Origin: a virus
Virus record (IMG/VR): IMGVR_UViG_3300021426_000095
Span: 1-64,000 of that record
Length of the DNA stretch: 64,000 bases
Strand: one strand, 5' to 3'
Each line of letters begins with the position of its first letter. Position 1 is the stretch's first letter. Positions 4,091 to 49,825 of this stretch are shown one piece after another. Made by a program: the position numbers and the translations under genes. The notes beneath the pieces are model-generated. The model saw nothing but the letters and a program-made list of their open reading frames with translations. It was not told the DNA's origin and did no database searches.

Positions 4091-4288
4091 ATGGAGAATT
4101 TAATAATGTTTAATTTTTTAAAACGCAAACAAACTGATCCTTATGAATATAAAATGCTTTGTAAAAATTGTGATATTTTTTTTAAACGAAAAAATCCTAA
4201 AGAAAAGAGATGCCCTGCGTGTAATCAGTTTAGTAGAGTAGAAACTTATAGTCTTATTAATAAAGAAACCGGTCAGGAGATTAGATAA
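4091..4288 (+). CDS. small zinc-ribbon protein (CKNC...CPAC)
   Basis: two CxxC pairs; overlapping stop/start with neighbours. Confidence 0.5.
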   Translation: MENLIMFNFLKRKQTDPYEYKMLCKNCDIFFKRKNPKEKRCPACNQFSRVETYSLINKETGQEIR

Positions 4289-4521
4289 TGAGAATTATTA
4301 AAGAAGGTGTAATACCTAATATTGAATATATCTTTACGTGTAGTTATTGTAATTGTGAATTTGCAGTAACCGAAATAGAATTAATTAATAATAATCCTTT
4401 TTCAGATAAAAATTCTTATTCATGCCCAACTTGTCATAAAAATGTATATAATCCTGAAAAACATATTGTAGAAGAAGAAACATCAGAACCTTCTACTGAA
4501 GATGAAACGGTAAATCCATAA
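4288..4521 (+). CDS. small zinc-ribbon protein (CSYCNC...CPTC)
   Basis: CxxC pairs; ATGA overlap with upstream gene. Confidence 0.5.
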   Translation: MRIIKEGVIPNIEYIFTCSYCNCEFAVTEIELINNNPFSDKNSYSCPTCHKNVYNPEKHIVEEETSEPSTEDETVNP

Positions 4522-4709
4522 TGAAACGAGAAAATATAAAATTTGATTGTCATAAATGTAATCATTCATTTATAGCAACACCACAAGAATATAAAACTAT
4601 ATTTTGACATGGAGATATTATTAAAGAAGGATATTGTCCAATTTGTGGTGCAGTTAATCAGCTTAATACCACAAGAGGATTTTGAGGTTCTAACGGAGGA
4701 AAATTTTAA
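4521..4709 (+). CDS. small zinc-ribbon protein with 2 in-frame TGA codons
   Basis: MKRENIKFDCHKCNH...F*HGD...CPICG...GF*GSNGGKF; taATG overlap at 4519-4523; TAA stop 4707-4709. Confidence 0.45.
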
Positions 4710-4845
4710 TATATTGCAACAATAAGTAAAGGTATTACTAATTATTATATAGTTTAGTAATATAAACAAATGCCTGTTCGACTCAGGCTCGGTCCATCTA
4801 CGGGCTGATCGTTTAAGTGCGGCAAGACTTGTTTTAGAATATTTG

Positions 4846-4875
4846 TTGACAGTTGTTCAATTTTTATGCTATAAT
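4846..4875 (+). promoter_or_regulatory. promoter TTGACA-N18-TGcTATAAT driving a short (~90 nt) leader-like transcript
   Basis: -35 4846-4851, -10 4870-4875; transcript begins ataaggtaagggaga and contains ttgttcgaatcaa and the hairpin ccatc-tga-gatgg. Confidence 0.55.
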
Positions 4876-4972
4876 ATATACATAAGGTAAGGGAGATGAT
4901 TGTTCGAATCAATTGCTGTCCATCTGAGATGGCTAGTTTAAAAGGAAAAATAACCGAACCTTAAATTTTTAA

Positions 4973-5002
4973 TTGACAATTAAATAAAAAATATGATATA
5001 AT
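4973..5002 (+). promoter_or_regulatory. promoter TTGACA-N18-TGaTATAAT driving non-coding RNA
   Basis: -35 4973-4978, -10 4997-5002; followed by aaaagggagag and about 400 nt of non-coding sequence up to the tRNA-like element at 5393. Confidence 0.55.
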
Positions 5003-5392
5003 ATAAATATAGAAAAGGGAGAGTTAAACATTCTCGCCAATATCAACTGGGAGTATGACTGCAGAAACTGCCCAGAGAGACGGCCTAGACGCAGGTGTGG
5101 GAAGTGGTGCCACATAGCGAAAAACGAGAGTGGGGAGTAGCTACCCCAGGAATTGGTCGGGATACAACGAAAAGGCTCGTACCGAGTAAACCTAAGTCGA
5201 AGGTAAGAATGTTTAACTATTCGTTTTCTAAAACGAAGTACGAAAGAGATGGATTCTCCATTCTCATATAAGGTTGATAGTCCTTTCAAACTAAACTATC
5301 AAAGTCGGCACGAAACGTTAACATCACATTAGCCGACTATAAAAAAGAAGAATGGTGATAGTTTCATAGCACGGGTGAAAGTAAACTGGAGA

Positions 5393-5465
5393 TAGCTGGT
5401 GGTGTAATTGGTCAGCATCGGCCCGCAAGGGCTAGGGTATTGGTTCGAATCCAATCTGGCTATCC
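5393..5465 (+). ncRNA. tRNA-like RNA with the anticodon arm replaced by a GCAA-capped helix (tRNA-Gln-derived?)
   Basis: acceptor tagctgg/ctggcta; U8-G9; D-arm gtgtaattggtcagc almost identical to the tRNA-Gln D-arm at 603-618; T-arm attgg-ttcgaat-ccaat; the middle arm is ggccc-GCAA-gggct, a 4-nt tetraloop, so no anticodon; no CCA. Confidence 0.4.
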
Positions 5466-6000
5466 GTGAAGGGTGATGGAACCAGGAAGATAAAGATCAT
5501 TGGTGTATAGTGTTCGCTTGCGGCAGTCCTCTTCAACGAAAGTCGTGTCGTCATTCTACTGCGGAAGGTAGTTTGTCCAATATGTCCTGATGACGTTAAA
5601 AGCTGAGCGTATAGTGAAAGACTGACGGGTTGAGTAGCGGCGTAAGGGTTTTCTTATGCTTTCTTTTCCAACAATGCTTTCTAGATAAGCAGCCACATAA
5701 TAAGTGGTATAAAGAAAGCGCCAAATAATTGGGGTATATGAGTCGCGAGCGAGAAGCAGAACCCCACAGGATGGTAACAGGTTCGATTGAATGCTGAAGC
5801 TCATGCGAACTCGGTAAGCGAGCTAGGGTGTAAATGGTAGACTCTCCGAGTATATAGTCAGAACAGACAATAAAATCGTTGGGTTCGTGGACATAGGCAA
5901 AGAGCTTCCTACCAACTGAATATCAAGGAAGGGGTTTTTCCAAGCGGCAGGTTGCGAGTCCTGAAAAAGTGCGTAAAGGCGCCACCCGCATTTATTTTAT

Positions 6001-6080
6001 GCACATATGGCGGAGTCTGGTCAATCGCAACGGCCTGCAAAGCCGTACAATCGTTAGTTCAAATCTAACTATGTGCTCCA
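6001..6080 (+). tRNA. tRNA-Cys (GCA)
   Basis: acceptor gcacata/tatgtgc + t + CCA 6078-6080; anticodon arm acggc-ctGCAaa-gccgt; T-arm gttag-ttcaaat-ctaac. Confidence 0.75.
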
Positions 6081-6084
6081 TTAT

Positions 6085-6178
6085 GGAGAGTTGGCCGAGT
6101 AGGTCGATGGCGCTCGCCTGCTAAGCGAGTATACAGTGTTAAGCTGTATCCAGGGTTCGAATCCCTGACTCTCCGCCA
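6085..6178 (+). tRNA. tRNA-Ser (GCT), type II
   Basis: acceptor ggagagt/actctcc + g + CCA 6176-6178; anticodon arm ctcgc-ctGCTaa-gcgag; long variable arm tatacagtgttaagctgtatc; T-arm cagggttcgaatccctg. Confidence 0.8.
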
Positions 6179-6316
6179 GAAAATTTTTATCAAAATATAA
6201 TAAAATATTTAAGCTAATTTTTATATATAATAACAAAGTCCAAGATGTTTTCACATTCGCAAATTATGACTTAAAACTGTCCCCAAATGTGAGCCTTATA
6301 ACAATGATGTTATTAT

Positions 6317-6351
6317 GGGGATAGCTATATTTTGGCTATCCCCATTTTTTG
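6317..6351 (+). terminator. rho-independent terminator closing the tRNA/ncRNA block
   Basis: ggggatagc-tatattttg-gctatcccc followed by attttttg. Confidence 0.6.
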
Positions 6352-6375
6352 TATATAAGGCGGAAAGGAGGAATC

Positions 6376-7428
6376 GTGTATAACATTGGATTTTATGGTG
6401 GTAAATTTCTTCCATTCCACAAGGGCCACTTACATTGTATTTTAAGAGCAGCATCACAATGTAATAAGTTATATGTTGTTATTATGTACAATGGAAGAGA
6501 AGAGCTAGAAGCTCTTTCCCAAGAGACTAAGTTTGGTAATAAATACCTTACTCCACACATTAGAGAATTGGCTATTCGTAAAGAATTAAAACCTTTTCCT
6601 AATATCGAAGTTATCATGTATGACACTAAACCTGCAGATGATAAAGCTGAGCAAGAAGGCAAAGATCTATGGTATTATGAATGTCAAGACATGATAGCAT
6701 TAATGGGTAAATTTGATGCCGCATATTCAAGTGAACCAAAGTATGATATTTTATTTAAACAATATTATCCTTGGGCAGATTCAATTATTTTAGATGAATG
6801 CCGCAATGATATTAATATTTCTGGCACTCAATTAAGAAATATGAATATTAAGCAGGCATATCAATATTTACCTAGAAGTTATCAGCAACTAATTAATCGA
6901 AAAGTATTATTTGTTGGAACCTGTTCTTGCGGGAAGACTACAACAATACAAAAACTTGCTAAATATTATAACACAAGTTACTCAGAAGAGCAAGGCCGCA
7001 AAGTAAGTGAAAATTTTAATATTCATAGCCCAGGCTCAGAATGGTATAATCAATTTGTATGTCAACAATATATGGCTAATGCTAAAGCTGTTGAAGATGC
7101 TAATTTAGTTGCTCTCTTGGATACTGATGCTTTGATTACTAGATTTTATAATGATTTATATGAAGATTCCCCTCTTCCAGCCGCTGAAGCTATTGCAGCA
7201 GACAATAAATATGATTTAATATTATTCTTTGAACCAACTGTTCCCTTTGTACATGATGGTATGAGAACTGAAAGAGAAAATGCTCAACGATGGGAATTAA
7301 GTCATAAATTAAAAAATACTTTCTTTCAATATTATGATAATATTAAAGTTCTTTCAGGAACCTATGAAGAGAATTATTTAAATGCTATTAAATATATTGA
7401 TGAAATGTTGGAGGGTTCAAATGAATAA
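6376..7428 (+). CDS. nadR: NadR-like bifunctional NMN adenylyltransferase / ribosylnicotinamide kinase
   Basis: GTG 6376 after aaggagga RBS; N-terminal GGKFLPFHKGH (HxGH nucleotidyltransferase motif); C-terminal P-loop GTCSCGKTT; no TGA codons. Confidence 0.7.
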   Translation: MYNIGFYGGKFLPFHKGHLHCILRAASQCNKLYVVIMYNGREELEALSQETKFGNKYLTPHIRELAIRKELKPFPNIEVIMYDTKPADDKAEQEGKDLWYYECQDMIALMGKFDAAYSSEPKYDILFKQYYPWADSIILDECRNDINISGTQLRNMNIKQAYQYLPRSYQQLINRKVLFVGTCSCGKTTTIQKLAKYYNTSYSEEQGRKVSENFNIHSPGSEWYNQFVCQQYMANAKAVEDANLVALLDTDALITRFYNDLYEDSPLPAAEAIAADNKYDLILFFEPTVPFVHDGMRTERENAQRWELSHKLKNTFFQYYDNIKVLSGTYEENYLNAIKYIDEMLEGSNE

Positions 7429-8110
7429 TATTTTAAAACAATATGATTGGAATTGGTTTGAATTAGGATTAATTGGAATTGTTTCTATTATTGGGTTATA
7501 TTTCTTTGCCGGAACAATTACTCCACAAGAATTTATTTTACCAACAGTAGATTTAGTTGCAGCTTTTTGTGGTATCTGTTCTGTGGTTTTATGTGCTAAA
7601 GGTAAAAAAGCAGGATTTATTTTTGGCCTAATTAATGTAATTGGTTATTCTATTATTGCTTTTAATAACTTATATTATGGAGAAGTTTTATTAAACGTAT
7701 TATTCTATATTCCTATTAATATAATTTCTTATATTACTTGGAGTAAAAATCAATATGAAGATAAAAATGAAGTTATACCTAAAGCTCTTAATTGGAAACA
7801 AATACTTATCGGTATAATTATTATTAGCGCCGCAACTATAGGTTTACATTATATCTTACTTTCTCTTGGAGGAGCAATGACTCTTCTAGATGGAACTACG
7901 ACAATTCTTTCAATCGCAGCTTCTTTATTAATGTGGCGTAGATATGCAGAACAATGGGCTTGTTGGATTATTGTTGATATAATCACTGTAATTATGTGGA
8001 TTATTGCTGGTGATCCAATTATGATTGCTATGTGGGGAGCATATCTTGTGAATGCTTTCTATGGTTATTATTTATGGCTTAAGAAAAGTAATCATTTTCT
8101 TTGGAAGTAA
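7421..8110 (+). CDS. pnuC: PnuC-family nicotinamide riboside transporter
   Basis: about 230 aa, 7-8 hydrophobic segments with the Trp-rich pattern typical of PnuC; ATG 7421 overlaps the nadR stop. Confidence 0.65.
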   Translation: MNNILKQYDWNWFELGLIGIVSIIGLYFFAGTITPQEFILPTVDLVAAFCGICSVVLCAKGKKAGFIFGLINVIGYSIIAFNNLYYGEVLLNVLFYIPINIISYITWSKNQYEDKNEVIPKALNWKQILIGIIIISAATIGLHYILLSLGGAMTLLDGTTTILSIAASLLMWRRYAEQWACWIIVDIITVIMWIIAGDPIMIAMWGAYLVNAFYGYYLWLKKSNHFLWK

Positions 8111-8117
8111 AAACTAT

Positions 8118-8147
8118 TTGACGAATGCTCCTTTTATATGATATAAT
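8118..8147 (+). promoter_or_regulatory. promoter TTGACG-N18-TGaTATAAT + conserved ATATTTATAAGAAAAGGAAAAGG leader
   Basis: -35 8118-8123, -10 8142-8147. Confidence 0.6.
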
Positions 8148-8205
8148 ATATTTATAAGAAAAGGAAAAGGTTAATTAGTTGACCCATCCAATAGAAAGGA
8201 GTCCT

Positions 8206-9204
8206 ATGTGAAGTAATACAACTGCGGGTAGTTGTGGTTGTGATAATTTTTCCCCTCCTCGTAATATTTATAGTACCTCTACAACATATACACCTAACAT
8301 TACAATTGATAATGGGTCTATGAAGATAGGTAATATGACTATTGATGAAGATTCTATTACATTTAATACTTCGTCTAAAGTTATGATTGATGGAGAAGAA
8401 ATAAGTGGAGACGATATTGATTTTATCCATAAATTAAAAAATTTAGGGAATTCCGCTTGTGATTGCACTTCGGCAATTCAACATATGATAGATCAACTCA
8501 CATCAAGTCCCAAATATAATAATAAAATTAAATATAATGAAAAGGAGAGTCAAGGAATGGATCTAATGAAAAATTTTAATTTTGGTCCGTGCGGTGATCG
8601 TGCTAAGATTTCACATCTTGGTATTGCGGTACAGAATAGTAATGGTGAATGGGTATCTTATGATAAAGAAAACAACGAAATTGTTAATGTTGATTTAATT
8701 AATTTTGGTTGTGATAATTTTGTTTATATGATGCCTGTTGCAATTAAAGATGTAACTGAAGGCGATGCAATTATTCATAATCGTCATGTAATGTTTGTTA
8801 CAAAGGCAAGAGGGAAGGCTATTTCTGTTATTGATGTAACAGATGGTGAGATTAAGAAAATTCTTCCTACTAAGTCTATATTTGGTTTTGATTTTGTAAC
8901 TAAGATTGTGAGTCTAATAGATTTTACAGCATCGGCCGCGGATGAAGACAATCCTTTTGGAAACATGCTCCCCTTCCTTCTATTGAATAATGATAATAAT
9001 AGGAGCAATGATGTTCTCCCTTTAGCCTTTATGCTAATGAACAAGGATGGTCAGGATGGTGGGCTATTCTCTTCTTCTATCTCCTCTACTCAGATGATGC
9101 TTATAGCTATGATGATGACAAATGGCAAGAATGGTTGCGACACACAGAATCTTTTACCACTAATGTTCCTGATGAACGAGAATACAAAGACGGCGACTTC
9201 GTAA
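8206..9204 (+). CDS. hypothetical protein (333 aa) whose second codon is TGA
   Basis: ATG 8206 after aaaggag RBS (spacing 5), immediately followed by in-frame TGA, then continuous with the ORF-track frame 8320..9204; the C-terminus is Met/Leu-rich. Confidence 0.5.
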
Positions 9205-49728: not shown

Positions 49729-49825
49729 ACCCCTCTCGCCTATCGGTATGGCCTCGGTCTTCAAAACCGAAAGTGGGCTGTGTCCAAAGCAGTCTTGCGG
49801 GGTTCGACTCCTCGGAGGGGTGCCA
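49729..49825 (+). tRNA. opal-suppressor tRNA (anticodon TCA, reads UGA), type II with long variable arm, G73, CCA encoded
   Basis: acceptor acccctc/gaggggt + g + CCA 49823-49825; D-arm gcc-tatcggtat-ggc (close to tRNA-Ser); anticodon arm tcggt-ctTCAaa-accga; 27-nt variable arm with ggctg/cagtc stem; T-arm cgggg-ttcgact-cctcg. Confidence 0.7.

Follow-up and report, generated by a model that had tools for sequence, protein, structure and literature searches.

A large structured RNA in a rumen phage tRNA island, with self-complementary loops and a tRNA-shaped linker insert

To our knowledge, RNA-only cages are built by just two known phage RNAs, GOLLD and ROOL. Both are found near tRNA islands and possess variable linkers, sometimes with tRNAs in them (PMC12286853), and Kretsch et al. 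describe phage tRNAs that sometimes lie inside GOLLD linkers. Structures obtained by cryogenic electron microscopy revealed that self-interacting kissing loops join the half-shells of GOLLD and ROOL, and that in the quaternary contact of ROOL the same sequence of two chains base-pairs (PMC12286853). Here we compare with these systems the interval 4770-5990 of a 64,000-nucleotide (nt) stretch of viral DNA (positions 1 to 64,000 of IMG/VR record IMGVR_UViG_3300021426_000095; hereafter the window). The interval had been the subject of an earlier note, made from the letters and a list of open reading frames (ORFs). On balance we favor a reading in which a large rumen phage transcribes three non-coding units from it, the main product being an RNA of a family that is not in Rfam 15, with self-pairing loops through which it would form homo-oligomers as GOLLD and ROOL do, and with a tRNA-shaped insert in its linker.

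A two-domain RNA with variable modules

The earlier note had described the interval as ORF-free and highly structured, and both descriptions hold. The longest ORF overlapping it encodes 106 amino acids (aa) on the minus strand, and all of its stop-free frames are at most 582 nt long, also when TGA, TAG or TAA is read as sense. A protein gene in an alternative code spanning the region, named in the note as a finding that would overturn its view, therefore has no open frame to occupy. GC content is 40-47% over 5000-6000, against 24-31% in flanking coding DNA. The predicted fold of the plus strand (−293 kcal/mol; z = −2.65 against shuffles) is stronger than that of the minus strand (−240.7 kcal/mol; z = −1.88). 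An initial impression of abundant GNRA tetraloops was dropped, as two such hairpins against 2.4 expected from shuffles are not an enrichment.

The main element is a structured RNA of about 985 nt on the plus strand (5009-5992), its 5′ end placed from a promoter at 4973-5002 and its 3′ end from the start of tRNA-Cys at 6001. Exact-motif scans for relatives identified two IMG/VR contigs, L002 (140 kb) and L013 (107 kb), both from sample 3300021399, and seven metagenome contigs (L135/L141, L136, L137, L138, L139 and L140). The RNA is homologous along its length to L002/L137, L013, L139, L135/L141, L138, L136 and L140, which amount to six distinct variants besides that of the window. As to habitat, AUXO01 is a metagenome of the sheep rumen, and the Hungate1000 rumen paper cites 3300021399. 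Family nhmmer profiles found one copy per genome and had no match in 1.3 Mb of unrelated loci that included GOLLD loci.

Wider searches returned little else. Two invariant motifs had no match among 185,579 GTDB genomes, and blastn of GenBank phages with the window RNA and the L135 RNA gave tRNA matches only or nothing. In IMG/VR, the 16-mer CAGGTTGCGAGTCCTG occurred at 10 unrelated loci, mostly protein-coding, and a gapped RNase P-like motif at 120 loci, nearly all apparently by chance, with L013 alone matching the family nhmmer profiles; other invariant motifs led to L002 and L013 only. Distant homologues of a 166-aa protein encoded upstream (44-49% identity; seven contigs fetched, one at 69%) came without the RNA, mostly from structural or lysis modules of unrelated phages, some with integrases. 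Neighboring genes differ among lineages, and no protein partner of the RNA is conserved across them. The family thus appears to be confined to a small clade of rumen phages, as far as exact-motif scanning, which is blind to distant members, can tell.

Common to all variants, whose RNAs range from about 765 to 1325 nt (L013, at 766 nt, is the short form), are a 5′ domain (about 5009-5301 in the window) and a 3′ core (5585-5852). The former is closed, at 5011-5229, by helix P1 (5011-5038 with 5202-5229), the sole long inverted repeat in the region, in which 6 of 25 pairs are changed on both sides. In the RNAalifold model the 5′ domain comprises 76 pairs with 98% of cells paired; 19 pairs are changed on both sides, compared with 1-4 in slid controls, and none of 500 shuffles reached the observed value. 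Downstream of P1, a hairpin at 5275-5301 has a stem that covaries (GAUAGU/ACUAUC versus GGCAGU/ACUGCC) around an invariant 13-nt loop, CCUUUCAAACUAA (5282-5294). The 3′ domain (5585-5992) consists of the conserved core and a variable distal part. Its core contains 50 pairs with 94.9% of cells paired, 8 of them changed on both sides against 0-4 in slid controls. The covariation counts, taken from an alignment of six to seven sequences, are nonetheless consistent across helices.

Between the two domains lies a variable linker of about 285 nt (5302-5584), which carries a tRNA-like element. This linker is common only to the window, L002/L137 and L140; it is absent from L013 and L139, and its place has other content in L135 and L138. 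Further indels are scattered along the family. L002 contains an extra 95-nt insert with a T-arm in its 3′ domain, L135 a 75-nt insert with a T-loop hairpin in its 5′ domain, and L013 and L139 an insert of about 100 nt. A conserved 3′ extension of about 350 nt in L135 (1890-2340, minus strand) and L136 (380-835) is not part of the window RNA. Conversely, a 42-nt hairpin insertion at 5726-5767 (UGGGG...CCCCA), at the tip of a GCGCCA/UGGU hairpin, is restricted to the window lineage: it is missing from L002, L013, L139, L135 and L138, and L136 has a different insertion there. Indel lengths of 42, 95, about 100 and about 290 nt fit a modular RNA, judging from the alignment.

Modules also appear to move. 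RNAalifold predicts a terminal three-way module at 5944-5989, in which GCGG and CCGC enclose a T-loop-like hairpin (CAGG-UUGCGAGU-CCUG) and a second hairpin (GUGCG-UAAAGG-CGCCAC). In L135 the GCGG...CCGC module is found upstream of the CAUAGGCAAAGAGC strand instead of downstream, and it is absent from L136; its relocation in L135 is a natural module transposition.

No covarying candidates for long-range pseudoknots were found. Several invariant strands (5657-5670, 5711-5719, 5896-5905 and 5282-5294) have more than one possible partner: GCUUUCUUUUCC is able to pair with AAAGAAAGC or GGCAAAGAGC, and the CCUUUCAAACUAA loop is complementary to GAAAG at 5714-5718. Covariation does not decide whether these strands make a pseudoknot, an inter-domain contact or an intermolecular one.

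Self-complementary loops

Two hairpins, one in each domain, carry self-complementary hexamers in their loops. The loop-A hairpin (5131-5148) reads UGGGG-AGUAGCUA-CCCCA and contains UAGCUA at 5138-5143; its stem covaries via three pair types around a loop that is invariant in all six sequences. The loop-B hairpin (5675-5691) reads UGCUU-UCUAGAU-AAGCA, with the palindrome UCUAGA at 5680-5685. Here the hexamer itself varies, being UCUAGA in the window, L135, L136 and L138, CGGCCG in L013 and L139, and ACUAGU in L002/L137, and it is self-complementary in every variant. An unbiased scan for complementary covarying 5-mers among six full-length variants returned four known stems and the hexamer 5680-5685 against itself, with 5/5 columns covarying. 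This self-pairing was the strongest covarying 5-mer pair of the scan.

Because a 6-nt palindrome is unable to pair inside its own 7-nt loop, the constraint must be intermolecular. The chance that a random hexamer is self-complementary is 1/64, so that two independent replacements that both keep a palindrome are unlikely to be accidental. The loops therefore point to homo-oligomerization via kissing loops, as in GOLLD and ROOL. Palindromic kissing-loop dimerization is familiar from the human immunodeficiency virus type 1 (HIV-1) dimerization initiation site. As in that site, a 6-nt self-complementary sequence is presented in a hairpin loop of 7-10 nt and variants keep the palindrome. The window RNA differs in being a phage non-coding RNA with two such loops, which would allow assemblies larger than a dimer; two self-pairing loops per chain are a requirement for these.

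According to this proposal, the large RNA would fold into its two domains, and copies would self-associate through loops A and B into homo-oligomers. The assembly would tolerate the linker with its tRNA-shaped module as a flexible insert, and the module itself would be a tethered passenger or a structural arm. It is possible, and we raise it tentatively, that the RNA is a third, independently evolved natural RNA-only homo-oligomer (a cage or ring) of phage tRNA islands, in which the loop-B "address" has diversified (UCUAGA, CGGCCG, ACUAGU) so as to keep the RNAs of related phages in one rumen sample from co-assembling and the linker carries non-decoding tRNA-shaped passengers. L002 and L013, which have different loop-B hexamers (ACUAGU and CGGCCG), come from the same metagenome.

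Several observations weigh against oligomerization or narrow its basis. The palindrome of loop A, being invariant, carries no covariation signal. Six-nucleotide palindromes are not enriched in the RNA overall, where 9 were observed against 14.7 expected. There are only six to seven distinct sequences, from one habitat and partly mosaic, and the covariation counts consequently rest on few independent events. We infer oligomerization from sequence alone. Since the RNA fits neither the GOLLD nor the ROOL model, the analogy with these cages is one of context and architecture, not of homology.

The tRNA-like module and rival explanations

The element that first drew attention to the interval is a non-decoding tRNA-like on the plus strand at 5393-5465, with an acceptor stem, a D-arm, a T-arm and the middle arm GGCCC-GCAA-GGGCU. 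ARAGORN reports it as "tRNA-???" with anticodon (ca) and a 4-nt loop, and the Rfam tRNA model (RF00005) scores it at 37.3 bits, above the gathering score of 29, with 4 nt in place of the 7-nt anticodon loop of the model. These calls bear out the earlier description of a cloverleaf with GCAA instead of an anticodon loop that cannot decode. The D-arm likeness to tRNA-Gln is borne out too, as a 13-mer, TGGTGTAATTGGT, is common to the element and tRNA-Gln at 596-670. Its closest global match is tRNA-Cys, by a bare margin, and GCAA may be a remnant of a GCA anticodon and A37.

The discriminator is followed by CCG, in contrast to the CCA mostly encoded by the other phage tRNAs, and this CCG pairs with 5371-5375. 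The resulting 5-base-pair helix, CACGG (5371-5375) with CCGUG (5467-5471), is present in the minimum-energy fold and shows a compensatory change in L002 (CACAG/CUGUG). As its flanks form a covarying helix, the tRNA-like seems to be built into the RNA as a branch and not to be a free pre-tRNA. L138 has a different tRNA-shaped element at the same site (Rfam tRNA, 18.6 bits; ARAGORN forced call, tRNA-Lys), in which the anticodon-like arm is capped by a UUUU tetraloop. Thus, the tRNA-shaped versions of the linker are consistently non-decoding. Rather than forming a gene of its own, the cloverleaf is an optional linker module of the RNA of about 985 nt. The earlier note had left three options for the cloverleaf, a degenerate tRNA, a decoy, or part of a larger ribozyme or non-coding RNA. 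Part of a larger non-coding RNA is what we find, since the cloverleaf sits inside a conserved RNA and L013 and L139 lack it yet keep both flanking domains; a ribozyme received no support.

Embedded tRNA-likes are known elsewhere, an example being mascRNA in the long MALAT1 RNA. Like these and the tRNAs of GOLLD linkers, 5393-5465 has an intact acceptor stem and T-arm, a non-decoding anticodon arm and a place inside a long non-coding transcript; it differs from them in its GNRA-capped anticodon arm and in an acceptor end that runs into a covarying helix, which leaves its excision putative. We also noticed in the GOLLD linker of Mycobacterium phage PegLeg (L015, about 700-790) a T-arm-like hairpin, GAGGUUCGACUCCUC, with a hairpin resembling an anticodon arm just 5′ of it; ARAGORN made no tRNA call on these linker hairpins.

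The alternative that survives best is that the tRNA-like serves as a processing signal, cuts by RNase P and RNase Z yielding separate 5′ and 3′ RNAs. It would be compatible with the oligomer proposal, and we regard it as somewhat unlikely. The acceptor stem and T-arm, which are the parts that RNase P recognizes, are intact, and the minimum-energy fold leaves single-stranded the 18 nt that separate the flanking helix from the acceptor stem (5376-5392). The 5′ and 3′ domains are structurally independent, and since variants without the module exist, the two domains may not need to be physically continuous. Against cleavage, the 3′ side of the acceptor runs directly into the CACGG/CCGUG helix that covaries with L002, as expected of a built-in branch, and the element has no CCA.

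To relate the RNA to known families, we scanned the window, L013 and L135/L136/L138 against Rfam 15 under permissive E-value filters. Beyond tRNAs and some weak sub-threshold, chance-like matches, these scans, which the earlier note had proposed as a check, returned nothing for this RNA (no GOLLD, ROOL, RNase P, transfer-messenger RNA (tmRNA), intron or HEARO), and no family accounts for the region. A very divergent GOLLD or ROOL member, instead of a separate family, is improbable on this evidence. In its favor are the shared niche in a phage tRNA island, a rumen origin as for ROOL, and a GOLLD-like layout of two domains with a linker able to hold tRNA-likes. Phage genes are present and tRNA-Cys and tRNA-Ser adjoin the RNA, likewise in homologues, and in the alignment the linker is absent, tRNA-like or otherwise filled. 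However, the GOLLD model (RF02032; gathering score 150 bits) had no match at E ≤ 10 in the window, L013, L135, L136 or L138, while the true GOLLDs of Roseobacter phage DSS3P8 (L014) and PegLeg (L015), run as positive controls, scored 150.7 and 216.4 bits; in the converse direction, the family nhmmer profiles miss both GOLLD loci. The ROOL model, in scans whose positive control covered GOLLD only, had no match at E ≤ 10 in any of the four.

Architecture separates the families further. Like GOLLD, the window RNA is phage-encoded, lies in or beside a tRNA island, is very large, and has 5′ and 3′ domains with a variable linker. GOLLD assembles by self-interacting kissing loops (PMC12286853); in the window RNA the self-complementary loops would play this part. 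There is no covariance-model or profile similarity between them. In GOLLD the 3′ region is universally conserved, while in the window RNA conservation is no weaker in the 5′ domain, and the distal 3′ part is modular. With ROOL it shares the rumen origin, the location in phages or prophages near tRNA islands and a disordered variable linker. ROOL, however, is about 580-660 nt long and has intertwined halves and paired ends (positions 1 and 659), whereas the window RNA and its relatives measure about 765-1325 nt and P1 closes the 5′ domain on itself. By the available tests, the predicted RNA represents a new family, positioned and built like GOLLD and ROOL and not homologous to either.

It is also improbable, in our judgment, that the tRNA-like and the T-loop units act as decoys for tRNA-directed host defense nucleases or tRNA-binding factors. 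Phage tRNA islands have been linked to countering tRNA-targeting defenses, and the locus does place several non-decoding tRNA-shaped elements behind strong promoters. These elements, however, have no anticodon loop, precisely what anticodon nucleases target, and the module is dispensable in two variants.

Identity with a known ribozyme or ribonucleoprotein RNA (RNase P RNA, tmRNA, or a group I or II intron) is very unlikely. L013 has a weak local match to the class B RNase P specificity domain, CR-II/CR-III (9.2 bits, E = 9.6, against a gathering score of 97), and a P4-like complementarity, AGUCCUUU/AAAGGCU, can be read in the sequence. The order of the P4-like strands is wrong, however, and these strands take part in other, conserved helices. 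The CR-II/CR-III lead proved to be a plain hairpin, GAAAGCGCCA...UGGUG, and was rejected because its sequence varies or is replaced in L139, L135 and L136. Beyond this lead, neither Rfam nor ARAGORN matched RNase P RNA, tmRNA or introns: group I and II intron core models gave no Rfam match at E ≤ 10, and no tmRNA was found by ARAGORN in the window or the homologues or by Rfam, in agreement with the earlier failure to see tmRNA hallmarks or group I intron topology. Finally, functionless decaying tRNA genes or spacer, or a protein gene in another code, are hardly credible: fragments derived from tRNAs do occur, and TGA seems to be a sense codon in the phage, but compensatory changes affect at least 27 pairs across two domains, consensus promoters are conserved, no frame is open under any stop reassignment, and indels of 42, 95 and about 290 nt fit a modular RNA.

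Transcription units, phage context and implications

The favored reading, a large RNA that self-pairs through its loops, includes two smaller units upstream. The modular architecture, the self-complementary loops and two small T-loop RNAs at 4770-4968 all lay beyond the view of the earlier note, which had correctly pointed out two strong promoters. Both promoters match the consensus at 12/12 positions (TTGACA-18-TATAAT with a TG extended −10): promoter 1 (4846-4875, plus strand), kept in L002 and L013, drives small unit 2, and promoter 2 (4973-5002, plus strand) drives the large RNA. At the position of promoter 2, sigma-70-like hexamers occur in L135 (TTGATT-17-TATAAT) and L138 (TTGCAT-17-TATACT). 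The promoter-bearing sequence at about 4830-4900 has several copies of 72-79% identity elsewhere in related contigs (L001, L002 and L140), which suggests a repeated phage promoter cassette.

Small unit 1 (4772-4838, plus strand) consists of a T-arm-like hairpin, GCCUG-UUCGACU-CAGGC, followed by a 7-base-pair helix with a hexaloop and a 4-base-pair hairpin; 2 of its 16 pairs are compensatory (RNAalifold, four homologues). It is kept in L002, L013, L139 and L135, where in L135 it lies downstream of the large RNA, immediately 5′ of tRNA-Thr. In the modeled fold it has the topology of the top half of a tRNA, circularly permuted and lacking the anticodon arm. Small unit 2 (4883-4968, plus strand) is an RNA of about 85 nt, with its 5′ end at the predicted transcription start of promoter 1 and its 3′ end at a U-run. 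A closing stem (UAAGGU/ACCUUA) encloses a long hairpin with the T-loop UUCGAAU and a second hairpin, amounting to 27 pairs (RNAalifold, three homologues). The two units match each other weakly by nhmmer.

Downstream, tRNA-Cys(GCA) and tRNA-Ser(GCU) (6001-6178, plus strand; ARAGORN and Rfam) begin 10 nt after the large RNA. The earlier statement that the interval is flanked by tRNAs holds on this side; on the upstream side, small ORFs separate it from the nearest tRNA, at 2849-2924. There is no terminator-like site in 5992-6001, and the next plus-strand terminator is at 6315-6345, so that the large RNA probably shares a transcript with tRNA-Cys and tRNA-Ser and is released from it by RNase P at 6001. 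In this scheme, host sigma-70 RNA polymerase would transcribe all three from promoter 2, which would set the transcription start at about 5009, the foot of P1, and cleavage at tRNA-Cys would free the 3′ end of the large RNA.

The phage genes of the window encode a DnaE-type polymerase (best cultured match SPbeta YorL, 38.7%), NrdD, RecJ, a virion protein, NadR and PnuC. TGA appears to serve as a sense codon in this phage: the total length of frames of at least 600 nt rises from 24.9 to 39.8 kb when TGA is sense, and ORF 4521-4709, a small CxxC...CxxC zinc-ribbon protein, is open only with TGA at 4605-4607 and 4683-4685 read through. The TGA suppressor is likely a 97-nt tRNA at 49729-49825, which has the anticodon UCA and a long variable arm and which ARAGORN labels "tRNA-SeC".

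Immediately 5′ of the RNA cluster are three tandem small zinc-ribbon ORFs (4091-4288, 4288-4521 and 4521-4709). L002 keeps them (74% nucleotide identity); in L135 and L138 they are not beside the RNA, and an unrelated protein of about 84 aa is there instead. On the other side, 3′ of the tRNAs, genes for a nadR-like nicotinamide-nucleotide adenylyltransferase and a pnuC transporter occupy 6349-8110. The segment of about 6000-8540 is wholly missing in L002. Within the tRNA array, ORF-poor, GC-richer spacers separate tRNAs at 745-905, 1615-1818 and 2420-2677, and one contains a T-arm-like hairpin, GUGGGUUCGAGUCCCAC, just 5′ of tRNA-Lys at 2678; these spacers may hold further tRNA-derived non-coding RNAs. 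Two tRNAs of the array were identified by Rfam with no ARAGORN call in the window, at 1-67 (45.6 bits, cut by the window edge) and 672-742 (48.6 bits).

GOLLD and ROOL have a single clue in common: both lie in tRNA islands, and their linkers now and then contain a tRNA. If the proposal made here is true, recurrence of the same domain-linker layout in RNA families that are unrelated would suggest that these assemblies have a tRNA-related function in common. The locus also offers a compact test system, comprising the short form in L013 (1649-2414), three natural loop-B variants, and natural forms that either carry or lack the tRNA-like. A third unrelated family with self-pairing loops would make such assemblies a recurrent phage strategy and not two curiosities.

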